From the IMG/VR virus record IMGVR_UViG_3300035492_000217: DNA of 64,000 nt; one strand, 5' to 3'. The position numbers and the translations under genes were made by a program. Below the pieces are notes generated by a model. It did no database searches. It had not been told where the DNA came from and worked only from the letters and a program-made list of their open reading frames with translations. Source of the stretch: a virus. The first letter of the stretch is position 1, and each line of letters starts with the position of its first letter. Of this stretch, positions 569 through 62,788 are shown one piece after another.

Positions 569-582
569 CCTGTATTTACAGG
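569..582. promoter_or_regulatory. Intergenic palindromic motif copy (CCTGTATTTACAGG, exact reverse complement of the consensus)
   Basis: Lies in the gap between CDS 604-1320 and small ORF 394-540. Confidence 0.6.
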
Positions 583-603
583 TTAATGGGCGGATTTATC
601 CCG

Positions 604-1320
604 TCAAACAGCGGCGACCTTGCCGCCGGCGCGCTTGGACTTGCCAGCTTGGCCGGATTTCAGCAGCTCGGCGGCCTTGTCGGCGTCTACCTGCTCGGCT
701 TTGCTGGCCAGTTGGCTTGCCACGAAGTCTACCGTGACGAACAGGTCGGACAGTTGCTTGGCCAGTTCGCGGGCCTCTTCTGCCGTGGCGGAAAACGCCC
801 TTTTGTTGATCGCGTCAAGCGCTTTGGTCAGTTGATTGGCGACGGTCGAGGCCTTCAACGTGGCCGACTTTGGCTCTTTTTCGGCCTTTTCCAACGTGCG
901 CCATTCGTCGAAAGTCAGCGAGAAGTCGCCAGCATCGACAATGGCGGGCTTGCCGGCTTCGTCCAGTTGCGCCGGATTGGCGAACTTTTGAAAGCGCGGA
1001 TTATCGGCCTTCATGCGGGCGACGATATAGCGGCCGGTTTTGGCGTCGAGCTGGACCTGCGGCGCATGCGCTTTGATATAGGCCTCGACCTCTTTGCCCA
1101 GCTTCGACAGCTTGCCGGTGGTCAGGCGAAAGGCGCCATTCTGCAGCATGGCATTCAGCGGATCGATATTGTGATGGGCAACGGCATGGATGGCGCAGTA
1201 GTTCGCCCAAGTGGTGATGACGTCGGATTGAGCGGCAAGGCCCTTGCCAAAGGCTGCGATCTGCTGAGCAGTGATGACTTTGCCGCGGACGGTGATGGTG
1301 ACTTTGTTGGATTTGGCCAT
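604..1320 (-). CDS. hypothetical phage protein (238 aa)
   Basis: Protein-like K/E/A/T composition. The opposite-strand ORF 481-1341 is G/L/R-rich, as expected for a shadow ORF. Confidence 0.7.
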   Translation of the reverse strand: MAKSNKVTITVRGKVITAQQIAAFGKGLAAQSDVITTWANYCAIHAVAHHNIDPLNAMLQNGAFRLTTGKLSKLGKEVEAYIKAHAPQVQLDAKTGRYIVARMKADNPRFQKFANPAQLDEAGKPAIVDAGDFSLTFDEWRTLEKAEKEPKSATLKASTVANQLTKALDAINKRAFSATAEEARELAKQLSDLFVTVDFVASQLASKAEQVDADKAAELLKSGQAGKSKRAGGKVAAV

Positions 1321-1601
1321 GATGAATTCCCCTATTCTTAAATACTTTCTGCAATGCGTCGGCCAATCCGGCGCATTGTCGAAGGCACTATGCGAACGGC
1401 TGGCATCCCAGCCGCTCGGTTCGTTTCCATGCTCCGGTCGATAAGGCCCGTTTGTGGTGCCGTGCGCCGCTCGACTTTGGCGCTATCGCCGACACTGGCG
1501 GCAGATAGCAGGCGAGCGACACACACACAAGGCGCAGATGGGGCGCAGATCGATGGTCGGAGCGTCAAGTTGTTAATGATCCGCCGACTTGTGTACAGGT
1601 T

Positions 1602-1616
1602 GCTGTAAATACAGGT
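1602..1616. promoter_or_regulatory. Palindromic motif copy (GCTGTAAATACAGGT)
   Basis: One mismatch to the consensus. Preceded by the half-site TGTACAGG at 1592 and flanked by GCCGAC / GTCGGC. Confidence 0.5.
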
Positions 1617-2246
1617 CGGCCAATGCAGTGCGAGCCGTCTTCACGATCGTCAGGCATGGCTCCGCCCTGCATGCCCGTAGGCTGCAAAGCGGGGGCGCCA
1701 TGCTCGCCGGGGCCTTGATCGTCTGGCGTTTCGCCCCTTGCGCTTTGGTTCCACTATCGGCACCAGGCGCCAGTGTCGCCTGGTGTTCGTCCAGTAATGG
1801 TAGCGCCAGCCATTGTCAGACAATGGGCGAGGCTATCCGCAACGGAGCAGACTGCTCCGTCGTGACTCAATCAAGGCCGCTCGGTCAGAGCGGCAAGCTA
1901 GCGGGTTTAAAGAACTGTCGTGGCAAGCGCAAGGCGAGCCGCGCGGGGCGGTGGAGCCGGCCCCGGTGGCCATCAGTAATTGCCTGACCACGGGACGAAC
2001 TATACGCAAGCAAAACAGTAGAAGCAAGCGACAAGCGCGGAAAAGATAAGAATATAAAAGCATAAGAGCTGACCCCGGCCCTCTTTTTTTTGTTATAGGA
2101 GGCGTCACAGCCCGCCTACCTCCGCGCGCAAAAATTTTGCATTTTTCTTAGCTATTTATACTTTTATAGCCACAAAACCGCCAATTTCGCCATAATTTCA
2201 CCAGGGAGGCCCTTTACAACCCAGGAAATGGGCCATAACCTGCACT

Positions 2247-2260
2247 CCTGCAAATACAGG
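2247..2260. promoter_or_regulatory. Palindromic motif copy (CCTGCAAATACAGG)
   Basis: One mismatch. Lies about 100 nt upstream of the HU-like gene and is followed by TTTACAG. Confidence 0.5.
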
Positions 2261-2357
2261 TTTACAGCTTCACGGTGTGTCGAGGACGTCGGCCACGCCC
2301 GAAGCCAACAATCGGACCTCGCCGAGACCTGAGCCCAAGAAGAACAGGACAACGACC

Positions 2358-2639
2358 ATGACCTACGCCACCAAGAAAGACCTCATCTCCCACGTCGCCG
2401 CCCGCACAGGCCTGACCAAAGCAGCTGCCAAGCAAGCCGTGGAAGCCACCCTAGAAGGGATCAGCCACCTGACCTTCGATAAAGGCCACCTCACGCTCCG
2501 CGGCTTCGGCAAGTTCCGGGCTCGCCAGTACAAGGCCCGTACGATCAACCCCGGCATCGTGAGCAATCCGATCAACGTCCCAGCTCGCACGGTGCTGACC
2601 TACAGCGCGAACCCCGACCAGGTACGGGCCGAGGCGTAA
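2358..2639 (+). CDS. HU/IHF-family DNA-binding protein
   Basis: Its 93 aa align by eye with bacterial HU: KKDLISHVA...GLTK..AK.AVEA, then GFGKF..R....R..RNP-like arm (RTINPG) and ...VP. ATG at 2358 within ORF 2277-2639. Confidence 0.85.
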   Translation: MTYATKKDLISHVAARTGLTKAAAKQAVEATLEGISHLTFDKGHLTLRGFGKFRARQYKARTINPGIVSNPINVPARTVLTYSANPDQVRAEA

Positions 2640-2745
2640 GTGGCGGTCTTGGCCTTGTTGCTCTGTGTCGGCGCCGCCGGCACAGCAGCCGCGATCCTGA
2701 TGCAGAAGGCGCTCCGCGAGCTCGAGAGCGCCTTCCACATGTCGA

Positions 2746-3345
2746 ATGGAGAGGACGCTGACCAATGACTGCAGCTACTGGAGTAGTCACGTGCTGAACC
2801 GCCCAGACATCGACGACGAGCCCGGCCGCCGGCGTCAGGTCAATCCGCACGCCGACCTGACCCCGTACGGCCAGCCTGACGACATGTCGAACGACCCAGG
2901 CCTCCGGACAGCTGTCCAGGACGTCATCGGGGCCCTCAGACAGGACCTGCTGCCACTCGACGTCCAGCAAGCGATCGTCGACGCCATGAGCCCGGCAGCC
3001 CGCAGGGACTTGGTCGCCAAGATCGCTGGACTCGAAGCATCGGTGCTGATGACGTTCAAGCAGCAGATCCAGCTCGTGGACACGGTGCTGCGACGAATTG
3101 TCAACCCTGACGGCACGGTGACGAATACCGCCGAGGATTACGACATCCCCCTGAAAGACGCCATGAACCTGTCGCTGAAGGTGACCCAGGTGATGGTCCG
3201 CGACCTCCCAAAGATCTACACGATCGACAGAATCCAGAAGCAGGAGGAGGCTCTGCGGCGGGTGATGGAGACGCACCTGACCCGCAAGCAGCAGGAGGCC
3301 CTGCTCGAGGAGCTGGAGAGGATTGAGACAGGGGAGGGAAGCTGA
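2746..3345 (+). CDS. hypothetical protein; positional candidate for the small terminase subunit
   Basis: 199-aa ORF upstream of terL with a coiled-coil-like C-terminus. No recognisable motif. The start is uncertain (alternative ATG at 2884). Confidence 0.45.
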   Translation: MERTLTNDCSYWSSHVLNRPDIDDEPGRRRQVNPHADLTPYGQPDDMSNDPGLRTAVQDVIGALRQDLLPLDVQQAIVDAMSPAARRDLVAKIAGLEASVLMTFKQQIQLVDTVLRRIVNPDGTVTNTAEDYDIPLKDAMNLSLKVTQVMVRDLPKIYTIDRIQKQEEALRRVMETHLTRKQQEALLEELERIETGEGS

Positions 3346-3375
3346 GCCGACGAAAGGCTTAATGCCTAGTTTTCG

Positions 3376-3388
3376 CCGTATTTACAGG
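3376..3388. promoter_or_regulatory. Palindromic motif copy (CCGTATTTACAGG)
   Basis: Lies in the 219-nt gap upstream of the packaging genes. Confidence 0.5.
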
Positions 3389-3460
3389 CAAGAAGTGAGG
3401 ACGCTACCCCCATATGTGCTTGAAAACTGGACATTTGGCTGTGTGACAAAGCTCAGGCAC

Positions 3461-3475
3461 TGGCGCATCATTCGC
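3461..3475 (+). promoter_or_regulatory. sigma-54-like -24/-12 element candidate (TGGCGC-N5-TCGC)
   Basis: The GG and GC dinucleotides have the spacing of the consensus TGGCAC-N5-TTGC, with 2 mismatches. It is the only such match I found. Confidence 0.2.
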
Positions 3476-3564
3476 CACCGCCGACGATAATAGTGTCAAA
3501 AAGACATCACAAGGCGAGCCTTGAGTGCAAAAGATCTGATTTCACAACAGGAAAGAGCAACACC

Positions 3565-3777
3565 ATGGACAAATACCTGATGTTCGGCTTCTTGCCGATC
3601 CGCGTATCCGCCGAAGGGACTTGGACCGCGGACACTGGCAGCCGATTGGTTGACCTCATTGCGAACGCAGGCGCCCGGATGGCGTTACTGGCGATCGATT
3701 CCCTCGAACAGAGCTTCGACCTGTACCTGCCCGTGAGCCTGGTACCGGCCCAGGAAGCCGCAGTCGTAAGCAGCTAA
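3565..3777 (+). CDS. hypothetical protein (70 aa)
   Basis: The ATG at 3565 follows AGGAAAGAG. It lies within ORF 3493-3777, immediately upstream of terL. Confidence 0.5.
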   Translation: MDKYLMFGFLPIRVSAEGTWTADTGSRLVDLIANAGARMALLAIDSLEQSFDLYLPVSLVPAQEAAVVSS

Positions 3778-3787
3778 GGGGGGAAAG

Positions 3788-5524: not shown

Positions 5525-5527
5525 AGC

Positions 5528-5836
5528 TCAGCGCTTGCCGCAGAGCTTCTCGTTCAGTTCGTCGACGACTTCTCCGCTGTATGGCCTGCGCACCTCCAGC
5601 GCCTTTAACTGGTGAATGAACGGTGTCCACTCGCTCCAGCTGCCGTTCGCCAGTTCGTACTTCATCTCCCCGCAGAGCACACCAGGCGCACCGTCTGCCA
5701 CGTTTCTGAACTGGACGCTGTCTGGGTTGCCGATGAAATCGGTCTGCCTGGCGGCCTCTTTCAGCCTCGCGTCTGGCCCGGCCTGACAACCTACCAGTGC
5801 CGAAACCAACACTGCTGCGAAAAATATTCTGACCAT
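5528..5836 (-). CDS. lipoprotein (102 aa), antisense to the late operon
   Basis: Signal peptide MVRIFFAAVLVSALVGC with lipobox LVGC. SD AGGAAG upstream of the ATG at 5836. Convergent with terL, with a 3-nt gap between the stop codons. Confidence 0.7.
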   Translation of the reverse strand: MVRIFFAAVLVSALVGCQAGPDARLKEAARQTDFIGNPDSVQFRNVADGAPGVLCGEMKYELANGSWSEWTPFIHQLKALEVRRPYSGEVVDELNEKLCGKR

Positions 5837-5962
5837 GGAATGCACGTTCTTCCTGTGATTACGGAAGCGTAGCGGCGATGAGCCATGATTCGCAACCTGC
5901 CGGTGAAAATACCCTATTGCGCCAATGGGTTGCATACCCAATAATCCGCCTCAAACCGTAAA

Positions 5963-5975
5963 CCTGTAAATACAG
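5963..5975. promoter_or_regulatory. Palindromic motif copy (CCTGTAAATACAG)
   Basis: Ends 3 nt before the portal ATG. A degenerate copy, CCTGTGATTACGG, lies at 5852-5864 upstream of the lipoprotein gene. Confidence 0.55.
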
Positions 5976-5978
5976 TTA

Positions 5979-9377: not shown

Positions 9378-9391
9378 CCTGTAAATACAGG
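9378..9391. promoter_or_regulatory. Palindromic motif, exact consensus CCTGTAAATACAGG (extended GGACCTGTAAATACAGGTCC)
   Basis: Lies 32 nt upstream of the capsid gene ATG. A second degenerate copy, CCGCAAATACGGG, is at 9402-9414. Confidence 0.6.
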
Positions 9392-9423
9392 TCCGAGATC
9401 ACCGCAAATACGGGAAAATTCGC

Positions 9424-14448: not shown

Positions 14449-14455
14449 GCGCAAA

Positions 14456-14476
14456 CCTGTAAAGCTGTAAATATGG
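14456..14476. promoter_or_regulatory. Palindromic motif, tandem/degenerate (CCTGTAAAGCTGTAAATATGG)
   Basis: Lies in the gap between the tail tube and chaperone genes. Confidence 0.5.
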
Positions 14477-20598: not shown

Positions 20599-20939
20599 TG
20601 GACACTTTCCCGGATATCGGAACCCCAGACTGGGGGTTGACCGAGGACGTAGATGCGTCAGTCACCAAGATTTCTTTCGGGGACGGGTACGAGCTGCGTC
20701 AGGCCAACGGAATCAACCACCTTCGTGACAAATGGGACCCAGTCTGGTCGTTCCTCACTCACGAGGAGGCATTGAGCACCTATGACTGGCTGAAGCAGAG
20801 GAAGGACCTGACAGCGTTCCTGTGGAACCACCCAGACGGGAGACAGGTGAAGGTCGTCTGCAAGTCCGTCAGCCTGGTTCGGAACAACTACAACGACGAT
20901 GTTCTCTCGGCGTCTTTCGTTCAGGATTTCAACCCCTGA
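20598..20939 (+). CDS. minor tail protein (lambda gpM-like)
   Basis: SFGDGYELRQANGIN resembles lambda M RFGDGYSQRAPAGLN. 113 aa. Confidence 0.85.
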   Translation: MDTFPDIGTPDWGLTEDVDASVTKISFGDGYELRQANGINHLRDKWDPVWSFLTHEEALSTYDWLKQRKDLTAFLWNHPDGRQVKVVCKSVSLVRNNYNDDVLSASFVQDFNP

Positions 20940-20961
20940 CCTGTATTTACAGAAATACAGG
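20940..20961. promoter_or_regulatory. Palindromic motif, double copy (CCTGTATTTACAGAAATACAGG)
   Basis: Starts immediately after the gpM-like stop codon, 40 nt upstream of the gpL-like ATG. Confidence 0.55.
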
Positions 20962-21001
20962 TTTCGGCTAAGGTTGGGCCACCGCAACCACCCTGAACGA
21001 T

Positions 21002-27436: not shown

Positions 27437-27453
27437 ACTTTGTTATCATGAAC

Positions 27454-27466
27454 CCATATTTACAGG
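27454..27466. promoter_or_regulatory. Palindromic motif copy (CCATATTTACAGG)
   Basis: Lies 15 nt upstream of the fibre ATG. Its ACAGGAA could act as the SD. Confidence 0.5.
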
Positions 27467-30309: not shown

Positions 30310-30641
30310 GCAACATCGACTGGAGCGGCGTAGTCACCGCCGAAGACAAAGCCAAGAAGGCCGCTGCCGCGGCGCGCGAGGCGTGGAAGGCACGCCGTGC
30401 CGAGGCGGTGCGCAACATCAAGGTGACCACCACCAGCGGCCGGGTATTCGACGGCGACGAGATCAGCCAGGCGCGCATGGCTCGCGCCATCCTCGGGCTG
30501 CAGCCGGCCGGCGAGGGGGCGACCGTGACCTGGGTGCTGGCAGACAACACTCAGGTGTCCGTGACCGCCGCGGAACTGTCAGAGGCACTGAACCTGGCCG
30601 GCGCCGAGCAGGCGCGCCTGTGGGTGGCCGATCATGAATAA
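30306..30641 (+). CDS. hypothetical protein, possibly DUF4376-like fibre-assembly-associated
   Basis: 111 aa. The pattern ...GRVFDGDEISQARM... recalls DUF4376 from memory only. ATGA overlap with the upstream gene. Confidence 0.5.
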   Translation: MSNIDWSGVVTAEDKAKKAAAAAREAWKARRAEAVRNIKVTTTSGRVFDGDEISQARMARAILGLQPAGEGATVTWVLADNTQVSVTAAELSEALNLAGAEQARLWVADHE

Positions 30642-30951
30642 GCTCGATCTCGCGGCCTACCAGGCGCGCCATGGCCGCCGGCCGTACTGGCTGGCCCTGC
30701 TGATCGCCCTGGATCAGCTGGCCAACGCCATGCTCTGGGGCTACGTCGACGAAACGCTCTCAAGCCGCGCCTACCGCAGTGCCCAGCTGCGCACCCCGGC
30801 AAAGCGCCGTTGGCGCCTGGCCGAACGGATGATCAACACACTGTTCTGGTGGGACCGACAGGGAGCGCTACGGCATTGCCAGCTGGCGTACTACGGCGAG
30901 CTGGCAGGCGAACACCTGCCGCGCTCGATGACCAAACATCAGAACCTGTAA
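30634..30951 (+). CDS. hypothetical protein (105 aa) with one hydrophobic segment
   Basis: ORF track. Contains YWLALLIALDQLANAML. Overlaps the upstream stop. Confidence 0.6.
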   Translation: MNKLDLAAYQARHGRRPYWLALLIALDQLANAMLWGYVDETLSSRAYRSAQLRTPAKRRWRLAERMINTLFWWDRQGALRHCQLAYYGELAGEHLPRSMTKHQNL

Positions 30952-30973
30952 ATAAGGGTTTCCATAAATACGG
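30945..30973. promoter_or_regulatory. Two degenerate palindromic motif copies (CCTGTAAATAAGG, CCATAAATACGG)
   Basis: The first overlaps the stop codon of 30634-30951. The second ends 1 nt before the ATG at 30975. Confidence 0.5.
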
Positions 30974-31013
30974 CATGGGGTTAGGATTCACCCAACTCAG
31001 GCCGGTACCTATC

Positions 31014-38092: not shown

Positions 38093-38105
38093 CCTGTAAT
38101 TACGG
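38093..38105. promoter_or_regulatory. Palindromic motif copy (CCTGTAATTACGG)
   Basis: Lies 9 nt upstream of the SbcD-like ATG. On the gene strand, ACAGGAAG serves as the SD. Confidence 0.5.
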
Positions 38106-38174
38106 CACTAAGAGCCCAGCCCGCCGCTTGCGCGGCGAGGAGGGTGATAGCGAAGTGGCGAAGGGCGCGGCGGG

Positions 38175-39496: not shown

Positions 39497-39508
39497 GAAT
39501 ATGGATTG

Positions 39509-39529
39509 CCGTATTTACAGCAATACAGG
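39509..39529. promoter_or_regulatory. Palindromic motif, double copy (CCGTATTTACAGCAATACAGG)
   Basis: Lies in the gap upstream of the ligase gene and overlaps the stop codon of 39515-40048. Confidence 0.55.
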
Positions 39530-40048
39530 TTGTCGTGCAAGAGTAGTGGCCATCGAGGGCAGTGCGAAGTAGTCCGCCAGTCCTCTACTGACGACGTCCG
39601 CGTTCAGCTTTATGCCGTGGCCTGCATTCTCGATGGAGGCTAGCAGGTAGCTCTTGCTGATCCGCTCCTCCTGCACCACTGCGGCGCCGTCCCAGACCTG
39701 AATCACGCCGCGCTCCGCGTCGTAGAACAGGACCAGGTAGGGGAGCTTGAGCAGCTCTCGGTAGAACGAGATGGCGCCGCGCTGGGCCGGCTGCATCGCC
39801 TGCTTGGTCAGCGTCGAGTTCTTCTCGCTGGCCTTCACCTCGCAGAAGAACAGCCGCTGGCCGGCCAGCGGTGAGCGGGCACCCGCCGGCAAGGCCAGCA
39901 GGTAGTCACTCGGCTGTGCAGCCACGATGGACCCGCCGGCGGCGCCGGTGTCGGCCAGGCGGTGCCAGCCCAGAAGGTGGCTCTCGCGCAGGGCGCGGAA
40001 CACCTTCTGGATCTCCTTCTCGAAGATCTTGCCTATGTCGGTGGACAT
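39515..40048 (-). CDS. PD-(D/E)XK nuclease, RecU/Holliday-junction-resolvase-like
   Basis: A D ... E-V-K arrangement (SDYLL ... FFCEVKAS) in a 177-aa protein within the recombination/replication module. Confidence 0.55.
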   Translation of the reverse strand: MSTDIGKIFEKEIQKVFRALRESHLLGWHRLADTGAAGGSIVAAQPSDYLLALPAGARSPLAGQRLFFCEVKASEKNSTLTKQAMQPAQRGAISFYRELLKLPYLVLFYDAERGVIQVWDGAAVVQEERISKSYLLASIENAGHGIKLNADVVSRGLADYFALPSMATTLARQPVLL

Positions 40049-44997: not shown

Positions 44998-45034
44998 CCT
45001 CAAATACAGGCGATTCCCGGCCCGTAATTACAGG
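44998..45034. promoter_or_regulatory. Two palindromic motif copies (CCTCAAATACAGG, CCGTAATTACAGG)
   Basis: Lie in the gap between the RNR alpha stop and the polymerase start. The proximal copy overlaps the polymerase SD. Confidence 0.55.
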
Positions 45035-45050: not shown

Positions 45051-47861
45051 TCAGGCCGCGCAGGCCACGCATTCGTCCTTAACGACGATTCCAGACCTCG
45101 AGTAGATGTAATACTGGCTGAGGATGTTTTCATCGAGCAGGACCATGGTCATCAGCTCGGCGATCAGATCCTCAGAGCCGTCCTCCGGAACATAGAAGTT
45201 CAGGCTTTGGCCTTGGCAGGTGTACCTTTGGCGCTGGCTCGCATGGCGCAGCAGGATTCGCTGGTCCATCTCGAAAGCGTTGAGGTACACCAGCTTTTCC
45301 TCGTCGGTCAGCCAGTCAACGTGCTGGACGCTGCCGAGATGATCGATGATGTCCTGGATGGTCTGCTCGCTGTAGACGCGCTTGGCCTTCATCAGCTCGT
45401 AGAACACCGGCGGGATCCGGCGCAGTTCACCTACACTGGATCCTGCGTCGAAGACCATGCCAGGGTCCGGGAACCAGGACTCGCTGACGCCGCCCATCAG
45501 CAGGCTGGTGGTCTTGGTCGGTGCGTAGGCCGTGCGATGAGTGTTGCGGACACCGTAACCCTCGCACCACATCGGCTCGCCGTACTCCTGGGCCAGCCAC
45601 TGGCTAGCGCGCAGTGACTCGTCATGCAGGTGTTTGGCGATCTCGGTAGAGAGGAACTGCGCCTCCAGGCCGATGTACGGGATGCCCTGCGACTGCAAGT
45701 AGGTGTGGAAGCCCATGACGCCCAAGCCGATGGCGCGGCCCCGGATGGTGAACTCACGCACCTTCTCGAGGCCTGCTACGCCGACACTCTTCTCGATGAA
45801 CTCCTGACACAGGCAGTCCAGGAACACCGTGGCGATGAAGACAGAGTTGCGCTGCTTGAACTTGTCCTTGTGCACCAGGTTCAGCGAAGCCAGGATGCAA
45901 CTGTAGGTCAGATCGTCCGAGCTGTGCAGCATGATCTCTGTGTTGTGAGTGATCATGCCATTAACGGTCCAGGCGTGGGTGTCACTGTCCACAGTTAGGC
46001 AGTAGGCATCTTCGTTCGGGAGCTTAGTCAGGCCGGTAAAGGTTGTGTACATCTTCTGTGCGTACCCTTTTTTGCTGAGCCGCTCCTTGAACAATTCGAC
46101 TACGCTCCCTTCGCGGTTGCTGCTCAGGCCAGTCACACCGTCTGCGATCTGACAACCCCTGATCGAAGTAATCAGCAGTCGCCACACCGGGCGGGTTTCA
46201 TACACGCCGCCATTCTCACCAAAATCTCGCAGTCCTCCGTCGTGCAGTTTTGCAATGGAACTCTTGACGCCGAAGTTTGCCCACAGCACCTGAACGTCTT
46301 GCAGAAACTCCTTGGAGACCGAGGCCAGCGACATCACGCAGGTGCCTTTGCTCGCCTGGATATTGCCGTCTGTGAGGTACAAGCCACGTAGGTACTGTCC
46401 TACAGTCTCGCGGGTGCCTGTCCAGACGAACTCAGGAATCCTCAGCTTGGTGTCTGCGTTGAACCCGTGTTCGGCAAGGATACGGGCCAGTGGCGCACTG
46501 CAGAGACGCTGCTTCGAGGTGCCGACGAACTCAGGGTTATTGGTGGATGTCGTGTGCAGGAGTGTGTTGCTTGCCAGAAGCTCAGCGGCGTGCTGGGTAA
46601 CTTCATCCGCTAGATGCAGAGTCTTGCCTTCCCACAGGTCGATACATACTGAGGTGCCGTTGTTGGTGAAGGTGCCATCGCCAGCGATCAGGCCCGCCAG
46701 GAATGCTAGGCTGGGGTTGTGCTCCGGACCGAAGATTCCTTCGACCTGCTGGATCAGCAGTTTGTCACCGGGCACTAGGTGTTGTGCCTCTACCCAACCC
46801 GCCCCCTCCTTCCAGACGCGGTGGTCAGGCGTGACCTTGTGGCGGTAGCCTTCTGCAGTTTCGATCTGCACCATCTCTGCGTTAGGACGCGGCAGAAGCA
46901 TAGGACCAGCCTGGTCTACTCCTGTGAGGCCGACAACCTTGTTAGGGCCACCTTCACGGTACAAGTCGCCTACCGTCTTGATGCCTCGATCTGTCACCAC
47001 GCGCTGGTCTGCAGCCATGCAGCACAGGTTGGTGGCCTTGATGTCGAGACCCCAGTCCTTGTACATCTGCGGGCGGTGACGGTTTGCCTTGTCGATGCAG
47101 AAGACGTAACCCTTGCCGGTAATCAGCTTGGTGTAGAGCGCCTTGGTCCAGCGGCGGTTGGCGTCTTCATCGCCGGCCTTCAGCTTCTCGACGAAGCTGT
47201 CACGAATGATCCAGCCGTAGTTCTTGCCGTTGGGCTCAGCGGCGAGCGAGTCGCATGCCTCGTCCCAATCGCCGTGCTCGATGTCGAGGTAGGCGCCGAT
47301 GGAGCCGCGGCGGGCGCCCCCTTGGCTGATCTTGCCGGCGGTGGTGAAGAAGTCGTTGATGACCTCCACGGCGCCGCTGGCCTTGCCGCCTTTGCTGATC
47401 GGCGTGCCGCGCGGCCGGATGCCGCTGAAGTCAGCGCTGGTACCGAAACCCCACTTCGACAGCAATGCGGTTTCTCGCATGGCGGTGTAGAAGCCGTCCA
47501 CGCTGTCATCTATCACCTGACCTGAACAGGCGACCATCATGCCGCGGTCAGTGCCGGTATTCGCCAGCGCCGGACTGGAGGGGGAGAGGATGCCGTCCCA
47601 CATCTCGCTGAAGAACAGCTCTTCCCACTCGGCCTCTCGGCCTTTCATGTGACGGGCCAGCGTCTTGGCGATCGTGCGGTGCCGGCCGCGGACGGCGTCC
47701 TCACCGGGCACTGCGTACTTCTGCTTGAACATCTGCCAGGCCTGGGTGGTGTACCAGCTTGGTAGCAGTCCTTGCTCTTGCAGTCGCTTGCGCTCGATGG
47801 AGAGCTGCTCGAATTTCTGGATGGTGGCGTCGTCCGCGCCGCCTGTAATTTCAAACGCCAT
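45051..47861 (-). CDS. nrdA: ribonucleotide reductase class I alpha subunit, interrupted by an intein
   Basis: The active-site motif NLC/TEI is split (…TNLC[C…HN]TEIML…). An R2 gene lies immediately downstream. Confidence 0.95.
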   Translation of the reverse strand: MAFEITGGADDATIQKFEQLSIERKRLQEQGLLPSWYTTQAWQMFKQKYAVPGEDAVRGRHRTIAKTLARHMKGREAEWEELFFSEMWDGILSPSSPALANTGTDRGMMVACSGQVIDDSVDGFYTAMRETALLSKWGFGTSADFSGIRPRGTPISKGGKASGAVEVINDFFTTAGKISQGGARRGSIGAYLDIEHGDWDEACDSLAAEPNGKNYGWIIRDSFVEKLKAGDEDANRRWTKALYTKLITGKGYVFCIDKANRHRPQMYKDWGLDIKATNLCCMAADQRVVTDRGIKTVGDLYREGGPNKVVGLTGVDQAGPMLLPRPNAEMVQIETAEGYRHKVTPDHRVWKEGAGWVEAQHLVPGDKLLIQQVEGIFGPEHNPSLAFLAGLIAGDGTFTNNGTSVCIDLWEGKTLHLADEVTQHAAELLASNTLLHTTSTNNPEFVGTSKQRLCSAPLARILAEHGFNADTKLRIPEFVWTGTRETVGQYLRGLYLTDGNIQASKGTCVMSLASVSKEFLQDVQVLWANFGVKSSIAKLHDGGLRDFGENGGVYETRPVWRLLITSIRGCQIADGVTGLSSNREGSVVELFKERLSKKGYAQKMYTTFTGLTKLPNEDAYCLTVDSDTHAWTVNGMITHNTEIMLHSSDDLTYSCILASLNLVHKDKFKQRNSVFIATVFLDCLCQEFIEKSVGVAGLEKVREFTIRGRAIGLGVMGFHTYLQSQGIPYIGLEAQFLSTEIAKHLHDESLRASQWLAQEYGEPMWCEGYGVRNTHRTAYAPTKTTSLLMGGVSESWFPDPGMVFDAGSSVGELRRIPPVFYELMKAKRVYSEQTIQDIIDHLGSVQHVDWLTDEEKLVYLNAFEMDQRILLRHASQRQRYTCQGQSLNFYVPEDGSEDLIAELMTMVLLDENILSQYYIYSRSGIVVKDECVACAA
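45942..47021 (-). mobile_element. intein (360 aa) with LAGLIDADG homing endonuclease domain
   Basis: Residues 281-640: N-terminal Cys (CMAADQRVVT), two LAGLIDADG motifs (LAGLIAGDGTF, LRGLYLTDGNI), C-terminal ITHN, then +1 Thr. Confidence 0.9.
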
Positions 47862-49646: not shown

Positions 49647-49660
49647 CCTGTAAATACAGG
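49647..49660. promoter_or_regulatory. Palindromic motif, exact consensus CCTGTAAATACAGG
   Basis: Lies 7 nt upstream of the thyX-like ATG. On the gene strand, ACAGGAA acts as the SD. Confidence 0.6.
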
Positions 49661-49667: not shown

Positions 49668-50147
49668 TCAAACCTTGAGGCTACCTTCAACCCCTCGAGC
49701 CATCCGCTCACGGGTGCGATTCAGCAGGATCTCCTGGGCGGCCTTCAGGTGAGCCAGACAGTCCTGGTTGGCTTGGCAGGCGAACGGGCCGGACTGGAAG
49801 CCGGTGATGCGGTCGATCAACACCTCCAGGAGCACTTCATGGGTAATGCCGTTGACCCCGGATTCCGGTATCGGGCCGTTTTGGAACAACAGCAGCAGGT
49901 CATCCGTCTTGTTGACCGTGTGGCGGAAGTGGAGCGCAATCTCTGGGTCAGGGTTCGGGTTCTCATCCAGATACTGCTTGGCGTTGAGGTACCGGCTGTG
50001 CTTGGGGTGACTGGGGTTGGCCAGCTGTTTGGCGCCGCTGATAAGGTATGCGTGGTTCGCTCCGCCGCTTCCAGGTTCGTCAGTGACGGTGATGTTGATG
50101 GTGTCGTTGGCGGGATTGACTTTGTGGCCGTTCAATTCACGTGACAT
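49668..50147 (-). CDS. conserved-looking hypothetical phage protein (159 aa)
   Basis: SD GGAGA. The C-terminal pattern GVNGITHEVLLEVLIDRITGFQSGPFAC...RGVEGSLKV looks like a recurrent phage family I cannot name. Confidence 0.7.
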   Translation of the reverse strand: MSRELNGHKVNPANDTINITVTDEPGSGGANHAYLISGAKQLANPSHPKHSRYLNAKQYLDENPNPDPEIALHFRHTVNKTDDLLLLFQNGPIPESGVNGITHEVLLEVLIDRITGFQSGPFACQANQDCLAHLKAAQEILLNRTRERMARGVEGSLKV

Positions 50148-50942: not shown

Positions 50943-51764
50943 TCAGCCTTCGTAGCGGCTGGTGATCTTGAAGACCCACGGGCGGAACGCCTTGGTGCCC
51001 TCACCGACCTTCTTGCCTACCTGACACTGGGTCACCACCTGGTCCAGGCGGGCGCCGCGCATCTTGGTGTAGGCCTGGGCCGCTGCGCCGGCGAGTCGGG
51101 CCTTGGAGGCCGGCGGGATGCTCAGCATGACCATCTGCTGGTCGTACTCGTCGTCGCGGTTGACCAGCGTGGCCATGGCCTCGAGGTATTCCTTGATGTC
51201 GAGCGGGGCGTCTTCACCGCCGTAGCCCTCGTCCAGCCACTCCTGCAGCTTCTCGGTAGCCGAGCTGCCGTCGGTGAAGGTGGCACCGGTGGAGTCGTAG
51301 GAGTAGTAGGACTCGGCGTCCTGGTCGGTGCTCTGGCGAACAACGTACAGGCGGCGGGTGTTGTGGATCACGCAGTCGAACTCGGTTCCAAGCTCAGCTT
51401 CCTCGCTACCCAGCAGGAACTTGCCTTCGTGCATCTTGACGCGGTCGAAGGACATGCCGGTGAGGTCGAGACCCTCGAAGCCGGCCGCGGCCTGCTCCTG
51501 AGAGAACTGTGCCATTGCGTTGGTGCGCTGCTCAGTGACCGACACGGCCTTCTGCTCAGCGGGTTCAGCGACGGCTACAGCCTGAGTTGCGGCGACACCC
51601 TGCTCGGTCATCGGCTCGCTGGTTTCAACAGCGGCAGTGGATACGGCTTCCGCCTCGGCTGGGGCTTCGGCTGCGGTGGCTTGTACACCGGCCTGGTTCA
51701 GTTTTTCTTCCTGGGCTTCAGTATTGACTTCGGTTTGTGCAACTTGGGGGCGCATGAGTGCCAT
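50943..51764 (-). CDS. hypothetical protein (273 aa) with an Ala/Glu/Thr-rich N-terminal region
   Basis: ATG at 51764 after AAAGGA. The upstream extension of track ORF 50943-51872 runs through motif-bearing intergenic DNA. Confidence 0.65.
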   Translation of the reverse strand: MALMRPQVAQTEVNTEAQEEKLNQAGVQATAAEAPAEAEAVSTAAVETSEPMTEQGVAATQAVAVAEPAEQKAVSVTEQRTNAMAQFSQEQAAAGFEGLDLTGMSFDRVKMHEGKFLLGSEEAELGTEFDCVIHNTRRLYVVRQSTDQDAESYYSYDSTGATFTDGSSATEKLQEWLDEGYGGEDAPLDIKEYLEAMATLVNRDDEYDQQMVMLSIPPASKARLAGAAAQAYTKMRGARLDQVVTQCQVGKKVGEGTKAFRPWVFKITSRYEG

Positions 51765-51804
51765 GGTCAGGGTCCTTTTACAGTGTCGGTATGGGTTCCG
51801 ATGT

Positions 51805-51850
51805 GCTGTATCTACATAAATACAGCAATACGGGTCTTGCTTTATACAGG
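51805..51850. promoter_or_regulatory. Cluster of degenerate palindromic motif copies and half-sites
   Basis: GCTGTATCTACATAAATACAGCAATACGGG plus TTTATACAGG, in the gap between the SNF2 stop and the next gene. Confidence 0.5.
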
Positions 51851-56640: not shown

Positions 56641-56647
56641 GGCACCC

Positions 56648-58234: not shown

Positions 58235-58261
58235 GTGAATATCCTTATGTAATGCTGTATA

Positions 58262-58275
58262 CCTGTAAATACAGG
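58262..58275. promoter_or_regulatory. Palindromic motif, exact consensus CCTGTAAATACAGG (preceded by half-site GCTGTATA)
   Basis: Lies 27 nt upstream of the helicase ATG, in a 120-nt gap. Confidence 0.6.
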
Positions 58276-58356
58276 TTATTGTGCAGTACGTTTTCTTCTT
58301 ATAAGGTTTGGCGCAAGAGGCGATGCTACCGGCAGCGGTCTTCGACCGTCAACGGC

Positions 58357-58996: not shown

Positions 58997-59005
58997 GGAA
59001 TCTCC

Positions 59006-59218
59006 TCATTCTGGCATTTTGGTGTACTTCGGGATGATGTAGTCGGTCAGGCCTTCGAGCATCAGGTCTTTGGCGGACTTGCGGCTGAACGCTGCGATCT
59101 GCTTTAGCTTGGCATGCAGCTCTTCTGGCATGTCCATCGTGAATTTTTTCTCCTGGCGGGCCAGGAGGTAGGAAGCCTGCAGGGAGGTTCCCAGTGGGTG
59201 GGCTTTAGACATGTACAA
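59006..59218 (-). CDS. ribbon-helix-helix (CopG/Arc-like) protein candidate
   Basis: FTMDMPEELHAKLKQIAAFSRKSAKDLMLEGLTDYI fits a strand-helix-helix pattern. The upstream gap is AT-rich and carries a motif copy. Confidence 0.5.
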   Translation of the reverse strand: MYMSKAHPLGTSLQASYLLARQEKKFTMDMPEELHAKLKQIAAFSRKSAKDLMLEGLTDYIIPKYTKMPE

Positions 59219-59262
59219 AATCCTTTATGTCAATTTAGGTGTATTTGAATCCTATTTGGCCC

Positions 59263-59282
59263 CCGTATACCTGTCAATACAG
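59263..59282. promoter_or_regulatory. Degenerate palindromic motif (CCGTATACCTGTCAATACAG)
   Basis: Lies in the AT-rich gap upstream of the RHH-like gene. Confidence 0.45.
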
Positions 59283-59321
59283 ATTCGCGTATATAAAGGC
59301 TTCAATACACCGATTTTGGCA

Positions 59322-59939
59322 TCATGCCCATATTCTAGCCACTTCTCGTACGAACTCACCTCGTCTATCCCTGGCCAAAGTGACATTCGCCTCTGCTGGG
59401 ACGGCTACTATTTTCGCGCAGCCCTCGCAGGCCGGCTCATCCGGGGCCTCCGACACCGCCTTGACCAGTGCGTGATTCGACCTGCTCTCCAGGGTGTCGC
59501 CCGGGGCGCTGCCTGCCGCGGCGATGATCTGCGGCTTCAGTTTCAGCTGGTCACAGTTTCTCCCAATCACGACGAACCGCAGGCCGTTTGGCTCGTCCTC
59601 GGTGCCGGCCAGCCTTATCATCTCGATGTCATGCCTTTCCGGCGAGATGAGAAACGACCGATCGAGGCTGCCCTTTGAGCAGGCGAGGTAGTAGGGCAGG
59701 ATCCGATTGGTGGCCAGGGATGCGGTGAGCTCGCTGTCGTATACAGCATCGAGGAGGGGGCGCGGGAGATTCAAGCCGGCTGGGCCTTTCCGGTAGAGCT
59801 GCTCCACCCGCGCAAGGAAGTCCAGATAGTTGACCCTGTCCGCCTCTGTCCAGCGCATCCGCACCTCAGACTTGTGCCGGTGGAGCGCGATGAACGTCCC
59901 TGGCTTGGGGAGGGAGAGGGCGGTGAGGTACAGCAGCAT
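59322..59939 (-). CDS. hypothetical protein (205 aa)
   Basis: SD AAGGAG. More protein-like than the antisense ORF 59211-59678. No motif recognised. Confidence 0.6.
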   Translation of the reverse strand: MLLYLTALSLPKPGTFIALHRHKSEVRMRWTEADRVNYLDFLARVEQLYRKGPAGLNLPRPLLDAVYDSELTASLATNRILPYYLACSKGSLDRSFLISPERHDIEMIRLAGTEDEPNGLRFVVIGRNCDQLKLKPQIIAAAGSAPGDTLESRSNHALVKAVSEAPDEPACEGCAKIVAVPAEANVTLARDRRGEFVREVARIWA

Positions 59940-60073
59940 GACGACTCCTTGCAGGCTTCATTGCGCGCCACTAGAATCGAAGGCGTGAATTCCTTCTTAC
60001 GCCGGCCTAGCGCAGGCGTTTCTTTTTCTGGCGCACAAGCCTGCAAGTAAGCGACAGGCTGCGTCAAGCTGGG

Positions 60074-60337
60074 TCAGTGCTTCACCACTTCCTCTGCCGT
60101 GTTGATCAGTTCAATCACCAGCGGCTTGGCCTTGTAGATCTTCTTGTTCAGCTGTCGCTCGAAAACCACCGCCCCGCCCTGGTTCAGGATGCAGAGGTGG
60201 CGGGAAGCATTTGCCTGCGAGATCTGAAGTCGGTTCGCCACATCGTTCACGCAGAGGCCTTGCTCGGCGTGCAGCAGTTGGACGATGTCCAGGCGGGTAG
60301 GATGGGACAGGCTGTTGAGTAGTTCGGCAGACGACAT
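60074..60337 (-). CDS. ArsR/SmtB-family winged-helix transcriptional regulator
   Basis: LSHPTRLDIVQLL...CVNDVANRLQISQANASRHLCIL matches the ArsR HTH signature. 87 aa. Confidence 0.85.
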   Translation of the reverse strand: MSSAELLNSLSHPTRLDIVQLLHAEQGLCVNDVANRLQISQANASRHLCILNQGGAVVFERQLNKKIYKAKPLVIELINTAEEVVKH

Positions 60338-60370
60338 TCTTTTTCCTTGGAAGTTCTGTGTTGGCTGGGC

Positions 60371-60408
60371 AATACAGTAATACAGGTCCGTAAATATGTA
60401 AATACAGG
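60371..60408. promoter_or_regulatory. Densest cluster of the palindromic motif: four AATACAG / TAAATA half-sites in 38 bp (candidate operator)
   Basis: AATACAGTAATACAGGTCCGTAAATATGTAAATACAGG, 34-71 nt upstream of the ArsR-type gene start. Confidence 0.5.
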
Positions 60409-60743
60409 TCTACCACCCTATTCGTTTTCCGTTGAGTAGGTTTCCCCTGGTTCCTGTATATTAGAGAGCTGCCCGCTGGATCGCTCCAAACGGGGCACTT
60501 TTGAAAATGCGTACATAGCAGCGTACATAGTTCAGGTTTGAGTGGATGTCTGACATCAAAAAGTCCAGCAATCTCGGGCACATACGGAATTTCTCCATCA
60601 TCGCGCACATCGATAACTGACCCCTCCGACACCCCGCGACAACCTCAGTCAATAACTCTCCTCAAACATAGATGAATACTGGCTTTCAGCGATATTGGCC
60701 AGGTCATGAGCGGACAACCCAGGACAACCCTAGCCACAGATTT

Positions 60744-60765
60744 CATGTACACAGCTGTGTACATG
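60744..60765. promoter_or_regulatory. 22-bp perfect palindrome CATGTACACAG|CTGTGTACATG upstream of int
   Basis: Nested inside a second inverted repeat, CCACAGA (60734) / TCTGTGG (60773). Related GTACA repeats at 60509, 60521 and 60798. Confidence 0.6.
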
Positions 60766-60828
60766 GTTCGCGTCTGTGGCACGATTGACCTTCGGGGCAT
60801 GTACACACCCCAGAAGGAGGCAATTCAC

Positions 60829-62058
60829 ATGGCTTTGTCAGATTCCTGGCTGAAGGCCCATCACAAGAAGCCGCATGAGGCGGCCATGGAGAAGGCGGAC
60901 GGAGAGGGCCTTGGTGTGCGGGTTTCAGCCACCGGCAAGATCGTCTTCCAGATGCGTTACCGGTTTGGTGGCAAGCCGGCGCGGCTCGACTTGGGTACAT
61001 ATCCTCTGCTCTCGCTGAGGGAGGCGCGTACAGAACACCAGCGACTGCGTACAGAACTGGAGAAGGGCCGCGACCCCCGGCATGTACGCACAGCTGAACG
61101 GGACGAGTTCGCCCAGGTCTGGACCAACGAGCAGCTGTACCGGGAGTGGCACACGAACTACTGCCTCGAGAACAAGCAGCAGGCCGAAGACTACCTTCGC
61201 AGCTTCGAGATCCACGTCTTCCCGAAGCTGGGCAAGCTGCCGGCTGACCAGACGACCGCCCACCAATGGCTGACCCTTATCGAAACCGTCGCAGACAACA
61301 CGCCGTCGATCGCCGAGAGGATCCTCCAAACGGCCAAGCAGCTGCACAAGTGGGCGCACCGGCGCGGCCTGATGAAGACGAAGCCGTTGATTGACGTGTC
61401 CGTCGCGGAGGATCTGATGATCCAGAAGGAGCCTGCGGGCAGGGCACTCAGCGAAGAGGAAATCAGGCAGTTCTGGTACGGCGTGGAGGCTTCTCGCATG
61501 ACGCCTGGCACCAAGATATTCCTCAAGCTGCTGCTGGTCTTCGGCTGCAGGGGCGTTGAGCTCAGGTCTCTCGATCCGGTGGCGGACCTCGACCTTGAAG
61601 CGGGCATCTGGACCGTTCCACCTGATAAGAATAAGGTCAGAAAGCGCGTACGGCGCAGCATCTGCCGGCCGATCATCGCTGAAGTCAGGCCTTTGATCGA
61701 TGAAGCCAGGCGCCACTCTCGCAGCCCTCACCTGCTATTCACGCAGGAAAAGGCAGCCAAGCCGCTCGAGGTGAACGCTACGCTGAGCATGCCGGCTTCG
61801 GTGATGCGGAACGTCAAACGCCTCTACGGCGTCGAGATGGAGCACTGGTCGCTGTACGATCTGCGCAAGACAGCCAGGACCAACTTCTCGACGCTGACCG
61901 ATGTGCATGTGGCTGAAGTGATGCTCGGGCACGCCCTGCAGGGGATGCAAGGCGTGTACGACCGCCACCTCTATATAGAGGAACAGGCTGCCGCCTATAA
62001 AAAGTGGTGGGACCGGATCATGTCGATCGTTGCGACCCCTCCTTGCCAGGCAAAGTGA
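60829..62058 (+). CDS. int: tyrosine recombinase / integrase (P4-type with DUF4102-like N-terminal arm-binding domain)
   Basis: N-terminus GLGVRVSATGKIVFQMRYRFGGK...LGTYP. Catalytic region HWSLYDLRKTA ... MLGHA ... VYDRHLY. ATG at 60829 after AAGGAGG. Confidence 0.92.
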   Translation: MALSDSWLKAHHKKPHEAAMEKADGEGLGVRVSATGKIVFQMRYRFGGKPARLDLGTYPLLSLREARTEHQRLRTELEKGRDPRHVRTAERDEFAQVWTNEQLYREWHTNYCLENKQQAEDYLRSFEIHVFPKLGKLPADQTTAHQWLTLIETVADNTPSIAERILQTAKQLHKWAHRRGLMKTKPLIDVSVAEDLMIQKEPAGRALSEEEIRQFWYGVEASRMTPGTKIFLKLLLVFGCRGVELRSLDPVADLDLEAGIWTVPPDKNKVRKRVRRSICRPIIAEVRPLIDEARRHSRSPHLLFTQEKAAKPLEVNATLSMPASVMRNVKRLYGVEMEHWSLYDLRKTARTNFSTLTDVHVAEVMLGHALQGMQGVYDRHLYIEEQAAAYKKWWDRIMSIVATPPCQAK

Positions 62059-62061
62059 GGG

Positions 62062-62301
62062 CTACTTGACCTCAGCTGCTACCGCCAGCAGGTCTACGTC
62101 GTCCCTGATGACGAGGCCCTGGCGGTCCAGGCCAACGCTATCGTCGAAGTAGATGCGGTTGTCGGCTCGCAGATGCTCGTAGATCTGCTCGGCGTGCTCT
62201 CGGTCAGTTTTGGTGTAGTCGATGATCTGATTGATGATCCCGTTGCGGTCGCTGCTCACGGTGTCTCTCCTTGGCTTCTGCCGGCGTTTGCTTTTTACCA
62301 T
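62062..62301 (-). CDS. hypothetical protein (79 aa)
   Basis: ORF track. Convergent with int. Confidence 0.5.
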   Translation of the reverse strand: MVKSKRRQKPRRDTVSSDRNGIINQIIDYTKTDREHAEQIYEHLRADNRIYFDDSVGLDRQGLVIRDDVDLLAVAAEVK

Positions 62302-62321
62302 GGATTAATGAAGAAAGGGGC

Positions 62322-62519
62322 TTAGGCCCCTTTCCGCATTTCCCGCTCTTCCCAGGCTTCCACCTCTTCCATCAGGTAGAGGTTCTCGGACCCGTTGTTG
62401 GCGATTGCCGGCTTCGGGAAGCCGCGGGTAACCGGCCAGCGGGAGATCGTCCTTGAGCTCTTATCGTAGCGTTGGCACAGCTCCGAGGTGGAAATGAACT
62501 TCTTGGCGACCTCGCTCAT
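62322..62519 (-). CDS. AlpA/excisionase-like HTH protein (65 aa)
   Basis: FISTSELCQRYDKSSRTISRW resembles the AlpA/Xis HTH_17 signature. The ATG at 62519 overlaps the upstream stop. Confidence 0.65.
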   Translation of the reverse strand: MSEVAKKFISTSELCQRYDKSSRTISRWPVTRGFPKPAIANNGSENLYLMEEVEAWEEREMRKGA

Positions 62520-62722
62520 CAGGTCTGCTCCTCCATCATGATCTCTAATCGGCGCACGTCGTGTGCAATCTTCCTGGCCAGCAAGGCTGGGGAGCCGCAC
62601 CCGAGGGCGTTGGGTAGTTCGAACGTCAGGCTTGCCTCAACGTGCCGGTCCTCGGCGACTCTCGGCGTTTGCTCAAGCATCTCGAGGACCATCTTCACCG
62701 CTTCGCTCACCGTGGGCTCCAT
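62519..62722 (-). CDS. hypothetical protein (67 aa)
   Basis: ORF track. Coupled to the AlpA-like gene. Confidence 0.5.
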   Translation of the reverse strand: MEPTVSEAVKMVLEMLEQTPRVAEDRHVEASLTFELPNALGCGSPALLARKIAHDVRRLEIMMEEQT

Positions 62723-62761
62723 GTCTTTGCTTGTCCTAGCTTGGTAATCCTAATGGTTTTG

Positions 62762-62788
62762 CGTATTTGTGTAAATACAGGAATACGG
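62762..62788. promoter_or_regulatory. Palindromic motif cluster (CGTATTTGTGTAAATACAGGAATACGG)
   Basis: Lies in the gap between 62789-63028 and 62519-62722. Confidence 0.5.

Follow-up and report, generated by a model that had tools for sequence, protein, structure and literature searches.

The 64,000-nt IMG/VR virus record IMGVR_UViG_3300035492_000217 (the window hereafter, meaning this whole stretch) carries, in many of the short gaps between its genes and on both of its gene arms, a 16-bp palindromic motif that we interpret, with a probability of roughly 55%, as the double-stranded DNA operator of a phage-encoded immunity repressor, dispersed over promoters and over intercistronic positions where the bound protein would act as a roadblock. 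The candidate binders are an 87-amino acid (aa) winged helix-turn-helix (wHTH) protein of the ArsR type and/or a 68-aa Arc-like ribbon-helix-helix (RHH) protein. What carries this proposal is the make-up of the motif, with its half-sites on a regular lattice, its concentration in intergenic DNA, its conservation at syntenic junctions among relatives, and its restriction to those relatives that are temperate and possess the small genomic module in which both proteins are encoded.

The 14-mer on which the original prediction was built, CCTGTAAATACAGG or its reverse complement, does occur exactly at 569, 9378, 49647 and 58262, and not once in 100 dinucleotide shuffles; with up to three mismatches allowed, there are 29 strand-matches against 1.78 expected and a maximum of five in shuffles. 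The degenerate copies listed with it are all present at, or no more than 1 nt from, the coordinates given (that at 9402 being merely a weak copy or half-site), the overlaps with stop codons at 20940, 30945 and 39508 are correct, and the near-copies embedded in coding DNA at 54362 and 47842 are weak. With a cut-off of at least 12 bits, a weight matrix of 16 bp that was trained on diverged relatives only, to the exclusion of the window, finds 20 matches in the window versus 0.30 in Markov-1 simulations; 17 of them are intergenic, two straddle stop codons and one lies inside the integrase gene, in agreement with the earlier claim that the motif is confined mostly to gaps between genes. Under a gene model built from codon statistics, which leaves ~6% of the window as non-coding, the hexamers TACAGG/CCTGTA occur 25 times in that small fraction and 13 times in the coding 94%, and the top intergenic-enriched 6- to 8-mers are all pieces of the palindromic motif. 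An equal density in coding or shuffled DNA, named beforehand as the outcome that would speak against the motif, is thus not what is found. Sites are present in 18 of the 37 gaps of at least 10 nt and in 16 of the 25 gaps of at least 45 nt, and close relatives (L042, L067) have three to four more in the rest of their early region. A literature search with the exact motif sequence returned unrelated eukaryotic primers only, and no publication of the sequence was found.

When 120 distinct site contexts, drawn both from the window and from relatives, are pooled, the consensus is a 16-bp perfect palindrome, ACCTGTA-WW-TACAGGT. Its AWWT centre alternates between AAAT, ATTT and AATT from one orthologous site to the next, as in front of the capsid gene, and because it flips in this way the true consensus must be the perfect palindrome. 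Conservation covers 7 bp per arm around the 2-bp WW spacer and ceases beyond eight positions on either side of the centre. The inverted repeat originally proposed, CCTGT and ACAGG around AAAT, hence holds as a palindrome, its unit being replaced by CCTGTA-WW-TACAGG with satellite half-sites. Many of the palindromes carry such added half-sites (WWTACRG) on a strict 8-bp lattice: direct pairs of half-sites are spaced by 8, 16 or 24 bp and divergent pairs by 7, 15 or 23 bp, while convergent pairs show no preference, which implies a uniform lattice of units pointing outward from a central dyad (<-<- ->->). The satellite units have no orientation bias. Most sites are a single palindrome, i.e. two units, and the arrays comprise three to five units in the window (five to six degenerate ones at 51779-51850) and seven in the relative L057. 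The sites stand at varying distances from the neighbouring genes, between 2 and more than 60 nt from the start codon and between -7 and 81 nt from the preceding stop codon. Changes in the arms, counted over the same 120 contexts, which had been chosen by their similarity to the consensus, comprise 114 single-arm changes that break pairing, 32 that yield G-U and 17 paired double changes; this lack of compensation indicates that specific bases, and not a stem, are under selection.

The window represents ~64 kb of a ~76-kb siphovirus genome, with a rightward late arm (~2.3-32.7 kb) and a leftward early arm, both of which are long co-directional operons. Its distant kin, the lytic Pseudomonas phages Lana, PMBT3 and UAntarctica, share its gene order and 55-61% aa identity in terminase and PolA; compared with these, the window additionally has a P4-type tyrosine integrase gene, an excisionase-like gene and a small module across attP. 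By exact-protein look-up, the same phage was detected as an integrated element in a metagenome-assembled genome and in genomes of Stutzerimonas stutzeri, and in these prophages the ArsR gene directly adjoins host lepA. The phage group is temperate and inserts into the 5' end of host lepA; a tRNA scan for an attachment site had found none. Judging from the source names of homologues, the hosts are S. stutzeri and unclassified Pseudomonas. Searches of a species-representative genome collection with the capsid protein and with an attB 51-mer gave no matches.

It is in the comparison with relatives that the motif becomes linked to this lifestyle. Among IMG/VR and other metagenomic relatives it is kept at syntenic junctions upstream of the portal, capsid, helicase and ArsR genes, at capsid identities of 84-100%, helicase identities down to ~67-70% and ArsR identities down to 44-46%. 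Its loss from the syntenic gaps of relatives was another outcome that the original prediction had set against itself, and the motif proved to be kept by every close uncultured relative. Lana, PMBT3 and UAntarctica, on the other hand, have, over their complete genomes, half-site densities of 0.17-0.44 per kb and no clusters, the window having 16 clusters and a density of 0.91 per kb; the three genomes show no comparably dominant intergenic motif, and no integrase, ArsR or RHH gene was found in them by tblastn at E < 1e-4.

A further observation comes from a distant lepA provirus, IMGVR_UViG_3300035491_000116 (L018, L035), where sites of the variant form CCGTA-WW-TACGG occupy the syntenic places, with a perfect CCGTAAATACGG upstream of the ArsR-type gene and TTTACGGCAATACGGC upstream of the portal gene. 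Both regulators have diverged strongly as well: the recognition helix of the ArsR-type protein reads SQPALSRNL in this provirus and SQANASRHL otherwise, and the putative beta-strand segment of the RHH protein, placed by alignment with ParD, reads KKLTVLLP in place of KKFT[ML]DMP, which is invariant in the motif-bearing phages. (BLASTP gave no alignment between the window ArsR protein and the ArsR-like open reading frame of L035, which Pfam identifies as being of the ArsR type.) It looks as though operator and regulators co-evolved in this lineage; since it is a single lineage in which both proteins diverged, it cannot tell which of them reads the site.

What are these two proteins? The first is minimal (87 aa), without an obvious metal site, and its closest solved relatives in PDB are PagR (1.6e-6), CadC and HlyU. 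The assignment of the second to the RHH class is by weak profile matches (among them Pfam ParD at 0.0098, or 7e-4 for the L035 homologue) and by the UniRef name 'RHH domain-containing'; an AlphaFold2 (AF2) monomer from a shallow alignment is all-helical, at a predicted local distance difference test (pLDDT) score of 67, with helix where the strand was expected. A third, 205-aa protein encoded between them is a conserved member of the module that is absent from L059 (AF2 from single sequence, pLDDT 35); neither AF2 model was informative. The genes for the ArsR-type and RHH proteins stand first on the early arm, in the orientation of the lytic genes, and their module adjoins attP, so that it becomes the attL-proximal end of the prophage. 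The largest array of the window stands in the presumed ArsR promoter region, as does the seven-unit array of L057, the ArsR protein of which is only 46% identical, and single palindromic sites precede the ArsR gene in L055, L059 and L035. A 2-bp-spaced inverted repeat over a regulator's own promoter fits the ArsR/SmtB family, and 8-bp arrays of mixed orientation fit RHH proteins. The HU-like protein, which had also been put forward as a regulator, is a less likely binder, since relatives without the motif conserve it too.

According to the mechanism that we propose, the repressor would, in a lysogen, occupy about 30 sites per ~76-kb genome, and these sites would fall into two classes. Sites of class 1, placed over likely promoters, would block initiation at the ArsR gene's own promoter and at those of the RHH gene, the xis side and gene 5528-5836. 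The motif supplies the -35 hexamer (TTGACA or TTTACA) of predicted promoters at 59277 and 62775, both with TAGGAT as their -10; in a third, leftward predicted promoter (hexamers 5970-5941, pointing toward 5528-5836) the -35 TTTACA is taken from the array at 5954-5977 and the -10 is GATTAT, with the site at 5852-5865 downstream of it. Class 2, comprising sites in short co-directional gaps on both arms, would serve as roadblocks to read-through, and would also include sites 40-70 nt downstream of predicted promoters, namely those of the helicase gene (promoter 58352-58323, ~40-70 nt upstream of the array at 58245-58276) and of the HU-like gene (sigma-70 promoter 2167-2196, just upstream of the array at 2238-2269). 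Both classes together would silence the whole prophage, as the stoperators of Cluster A mycobacteriophages do (see below). With the regulator genes of the prophage pointing into the lytic genes, any transcription of them would need to be halted, as would any that enters from host DNA.

It is even conceivable, although unlikely, that the two proteins act jointly. An ArsR-type wHTH dimer would nucleate on the palindrome, and RHH dimers would polymerise outward along phased half-sites of a shared 8-bp unit, creating orientation-independent roadblocks that cover, in each gap between cistrons, both promoters and ribosome-binding regions; operator and regulators, by changing in concert (TACAG versus TACGG), would yield heteroimmune lineages among lepA-integrating Stutzerimonas and Pseudomonas phages.

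Several observations weigh against the immunity operator. Nine gaps of at least 45 nt are devoid of the motif. The count of predicted sigma-70 promoters is no higher than in shuffled sequence, and the combination of sigma-70 -35 and -10 hexamers with room for a leader is found at only three to four sites. Six sites are no farther than 15 nt from a start codon, a placement that a translational operator could have as well. Being symmetric, the site gives no orientation information with which to probe the hallmark of stoperators. Wherever one of the ArsR and RHH genes is found the other is too, and the variant lineage has diverged in both, so that the binder cannot be assigned to either. Finally, no canonical repressor of the CI/LexA type was found, which is weak evidence; several module proteins have no recognisable fold.

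Among other ways of reading the same sites, the one that departs least from the above retains protein-DNA recognition and moves it to the lytic cycle, where an early protein, e.g. the RHH protein, would set the timing of the switch from early to late genes, turn the early genes off, or serve to organise or compact the genome. The presence of sites on both arms, some of them preceding strongly expressed late genes (for capsid, portal and tail), regulator genes co-directional with the early lytic genes, and phased arrays resembling RHH nucleoprotein assemblies would all suit such a role; however, lytic relatives of identical gene order do without the motif, which instead tracks the integrase and regulator module and the temperate lifestyle, and a degraded prophage remnant (described below) keeps regulators and sites alike, which fits immunity better. 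We regard a lytic role as improbable. Somewhat more improbable is an RNA element, i.e. a hairpin CCUGUA-WW-UACAGG that is bound by protein or cut by RNase and acts on mRNA processing or stability, or on translation by sequestering ACAGGA. All sites do lie in transcribed intercistronic gaps, the six start-proximal sites would be well placed, and hairpins are predicted, four of the six tested folding better than shuffles (z -2.5 to -6.2). The predicted energies, however, extend from -15.8 down to a negligible -2.1 kcal/mol at the portal gene, compensatory covariation is missing with most variants breaking the pairing, and a scan of the window against Rfam found no family at gathering threshold. 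It is hard to see what direct-orientation half-sites phased at 8 bp would mean for an RNA structure; the divergent control region also has sites, others precede promoters or cover -35 boxes, and the only clade-specific nucleic-acid-binding proteins recognised are the wHTH and RHH DNA binders. As for the Shine-Dalgarno overlap (ACAGGA) pointed out by the original prediction, it is real at sbcD and thyX, where the proximal half-site gives AGGA, but it holds for few genes only and is most simply explained by the shortness of the gaps. The preference expressed at the outset for an operator of a dimeric protein over an RNA hairpin has accordingly gained indirect support, from the missing covariation, the 8-bp arrays, the overlaps with predicted -35 elements, the largest array being at a regulator gene's promoter region, the co-occurrence with the module and the absence from lytic relatives.

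A promoter element, in which TTTACA/TTGACA would be the -35 of host sigma-70 or of a phage-modified RNA polymerase and the copies would be internal promoters, seems very unlikely. It would explain why the motif forms the -35 in three of six predicted sigma-70 promoters (40 kb scanned), two of which share the TAGGAT -10 and a 17-nt spacing. Nevertheless, sites end 2, 7, 9 and 11 nt from the ATG codons of the portal, thyX, sbcD and ligase genes, the products of which align at their N-termini with those of Lana, PMBT3 and UAntarctica, verifying these starts by conservation; at least four sites thus leave no space for a -10 and a leader, and cannot be promoters, in keeping with the earlier view that the sites are not ordinary ones. 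Moreover, no conserved -10 follows most sites, the promoter counts equal the shuffled expectation, and the orientation of the centre, on which it depends whether TTTACA faces the gene, is unbiased (roughly six AA, nine TT and two AT) and flips between orthologous sites. Least probable of all, and hardly credible to us, is a binding site for a host factor or a recombination 'boundary sequence' that promotes module exchange between related phages. Megablast identity breakpoints at 49668 (thyX module) and 59296 (RHH promoter region) do adjoin motif sites, and shared palindromes may sometimes serve as recombination junctions. Most breakpoints, though, are not at sites; microhomology needs no strong purifying selection on 14 specific bases; the 34 kb of host DNA flanking four prophage junctions contain no site; and in the variant lineage, likewise integrated at lepA, half-site and phage regulators have changed together. 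The dispersed operator of an immunity repressor thus remains the reading that we favour, and the sites and genes on which it draws are collected in the table.

Table. Motif sites, candidate regulator genes and integration features of the window (a dot marks features without strand).
Feature	Position	Strand	Remarks
Exact palindromic site between early genes 604-1320(-) and 390-539(-)	569..582	.	24.9 bits
3-unit array (> < >), ~1-kb divergent early/late control region	1593..1616	.	conserved in relatives' alignment
4-unit array (printed as ( ( > >), ~90 nt upstream of HU-like gene (first + arm gene)	2238..2269	.	
Site with 2 mismatches in gap 3346-3564	3375..3388	.	14.3 bits
Degenerate site 15 nt upstream of clade-specific gene 5528-5836(-)	5852..5865	.	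13.7 bits
3-unit array ending 2 nt before portal ATG (5979)	5954..5977	.	syntenic in L007-L015, L023
Exact site in longer palindrome (CGGACCTGTAAATACAGGTCCG), upstream of major capsid gene	9378..9415	.	weak second copy 9402-9415; 9378 syntenic in all close relatives, centre flipping
Two direct half-sites (< <) after major tail gene	14455..14470	.	
3-unit array (< > >) starting at stop codon of 20598-20939	20939..20962	.	
Site 15 nt upstream of 822-aa tail fibre gene	27453..27466	.	19.0 bits
Site overlapping stop of 30634-30951, plus half-site 30962-30975	30945..30975	.	
Site 9 nt upstream of sbcD-like ATG	38093..38106	.	proximal half-site gives AGGA
3-unit array, resolvase-like gene stop to ligase ATG (11 nt)	39507..39530	.	
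Half-site and palindromic site between nrdA and polA	44998..45034	.	
Exact site 7 nt upstream of thyX-like ATG	49647..49660	.	mosaic breakpoint adjoins
5-6 degenerate units in 120-nt gap upstream of 50943-51764	51779..51850	.	
4-unit array (printed as ( < < >), 27 nt upstream of Dda-like helicase ATG	58245..58276	.	
Array over -35 (TTGACA) of predicted RHH gene promoter (-10 TAGGAT)	59261..59300	.	
5-unit array ~35-75 nt upstream of ArsR-type gene ATG, between gene and attP	60371..60410	.	
Array over -35 (TTTACA) of predicted promoter (-10 TAGGAT) for 62519-62722 and xis-like gene	62759..62790	.	
Candidate binder: 68-aa Arc-like RHH protein	59006..59212	-	PHROG Arc-like repressor 1.2e-5
205-aa protein of unknown function between the regulators	59322..59939	-	
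Candidate binder: 87-aa ArsR/SmtB-type winged-helix protein, first gene at prophage attL end	60074..60337	-	Pfam HTH_20 1.7e-11, HTH_5 2e-9
attP core, copy of host lepA 5' end	60546..60613	+	phage/prophage junction comparison
Tyrosine integrase, P4-type arm-binding domain	60829..62058	+	
Excisionase-like protein	62322..62519	-	PHROG excisionase/DNA-binding, 5.7e-10 to 7e-6

A number of further observations concern the integration region and its surroundings. In the attP region (60520-60830) the phage brings a replacement copy of the first ~23 lepA codons, and the mechanical open reading frame 60461-60610(-) is spurious. The attP core is flanked by repeats of the TGTACA type, CTATGTACGC twice near 60520-60545 and three TGTACA copies at 60740-60800, which probably serve as arm sites for the integrase. 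Within the integrase gene, in its 3' part, is a perfect palindrome, CCTCTATATAGAGG at 61968-61981, that is kept in L024, L034, L042 and L045 and scores as a look-alike of the motif; its core differs. Several IMG/VR contigs start at codon 4 of the RHH gene; a mosaic junction was dropped as the explanation, for the opposite ends of these contigs stop at the integrase gene, and the shared starts would reflect automated provirus trimming. In Pseudomonas sp. GCA_029840705.1 (L055, 9811-14275), a 4.4-kb prophage remnant lies between lepA and mucD and retains no more than the genes for the ArsR-type, 213-aa and RHH proteins and three small genes, with motif sites that are still present; it may be a domesticated immunity module. 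The prophage of S. stutzeri GCA_029839225.1 (L068, 12569-15648) has its primase gene fused to the dNMP-kinase region and has lost the block from SNF2 helicase to PolA; it is a deletion derivative and probably defective. A motif-less distant relative, IMGVR_UViG_3300044259_000036 (L038), has intergenic-only 7-mers of its own, TTGCGTA/TACGTAA, in four to five copies, which could be a different operator.

Elsewhere in the window, the clade-specific gene 5528-5836(-), which encodes 102 aa between the terminase and portal genes and is absent from the lytic relatives, has no family match except PHROGs of unknown function; it could be a moron expressed during lysogeny. The ~1-kb non-coding divergent region between the early and late arms (1321-2357) contains long blocks conserved across relatives and several GC-rich hairpins, without any Rfam match in this region, and could harbour promoters, an origin, a pac site or a non-coding RNA. 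The gene at 45051-47861 encodes the large subunit of a class I ribonucleotide reductase, split by an intein that includes a LAGLIDADG homing-endonuclease domain; breakpoints in megablast comparisons with relatives, at 45051 and 45938, fall at the 3' end of the gene, away from the part coding for the intein (~45.9-46.9 kb). The early protein encoded at 63280-63999 (239 aa) has an Nmad5 (nucleotide modification associated) domain; with thyX and NrdAB also encoded, and a dNMP kinase in relatives, this is a hint that the DNA of the phage contains modified bases.

If the immunity operator is accepted, several practical consequences follow. The motif would mark the immunity module and the immunity groups of an uncultured clade related to Lanavirus, and would separate its temperate from its lytic members, which is relevant to choosing or engineering Pseudomonas phages. 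It would also offer a simple testable system consisting of a 16-bp site, two small proteins and natural S. stutzeri lysogens such as GCA_048959555.1.

How does such a system compare with those already described? Two familiar candidates were rejected: the LexA/SOS box has the form CTGT-N8-ACAG, the spacing in the motif being CTGT-N4-ACAG, and a CsrA/RsmA site needs GGA in the loop, the motif having its GG in the stem, usually followed by T. The SAS/ESAS of Cluster K mycobacteriophages are 13-17-bp motifs, partly inverted repeats, that lie just upstream of many starts and overlap the ribosome-binding site; their distance from the start is constant and they include the Shine-Dalgarno sequence, whereas the motif stands at varying distances from the start. 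Closer in concept are the operators of C1 of phage P1, asymmetric 17-mers at promoters that are scattered in large numbers and serve one immunity repressor, and the conserved inverted repeats (CIRs) of the Streptomyces phage phiC31, which are palindromic, often intergenic and likewise read by one immunity repressor. In both, as proposed here, one repressor serves sites scattered over a large temperate genome; sequence and protein families differ, and we know of no 8-bp-phased half-site arrays or start-abutting late-arm sites in either phage.

With respect to the candidate proteins, an 8-bp unit has a precedent in the metboxes of MetJ. RHH proteins bind contiguous units of 7-8 bp, direct or inverted, with one dimer per unit, in cooperative arrays of 2-10 at promoters (PMC9499535). 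The phased direct and inverted units of the motif, with an Arc-like gene in the module, resemble the RHH arrays known for omega/ParB of pSM19035, with its heptads, and for Arc and Mnt of P22, but the unit sequence is unrelated and most sites here are a single palindrome. Operators of the ArsR/SmtB family are 12-2-12 imperfect inverted repeats, located near or over the -35, the transcription start or the regulator's own promoter, to which dimers bind, sometimes cooperatively (PMC8790569). The 2-bp spacer, the site at the regulator's own promoter region and the HTH_20/HTH_5 protein alongside it are shared features, whereas the motif is 7-2-7 in place of 12-2-12 and occurs about 30 times per 76 kb in place of once or twice, and its flanking direct-repeat units are not a known feature of ArsR operators.

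Cluster A mycobacteriophages, in which repressor gene and early lytic genes run in the same direction, provide the comparison for the genome-wide scale. The L5 repressor has more than 20 sites, comprising operators in promoters and 'stoperators' in short intergenic spaces (PMC9283540). Here as in this cluster (L5 gp71, Bxb1, TipsytheTRex), sites are spread over both arms of the genome, and in the cluster they are proposed to block both initiation and elongation (PMC9283540). Stoperators are, however, asymmetric 13-mers that are bound by a monomer and work in one orientation only, unlike a palindrome with phased half-sites; gp71 is unrelated to the ArsR-type and RHH candidates; and the host here is a gammaproteobacterium. 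Repressor sites that stop elongation genome-wide have been detailed mainly for actinobacteriophages, and if our reading is true, the same strategy, implemented in proteobacterial phages with a symmetric, arrayed site and other protein folds, would amount to convergent evolution. The concept of dispersed operators thus has its precedent, and it is in sequence, symmetric array, protein folds and host phylum that the present sites differ from stoperators.

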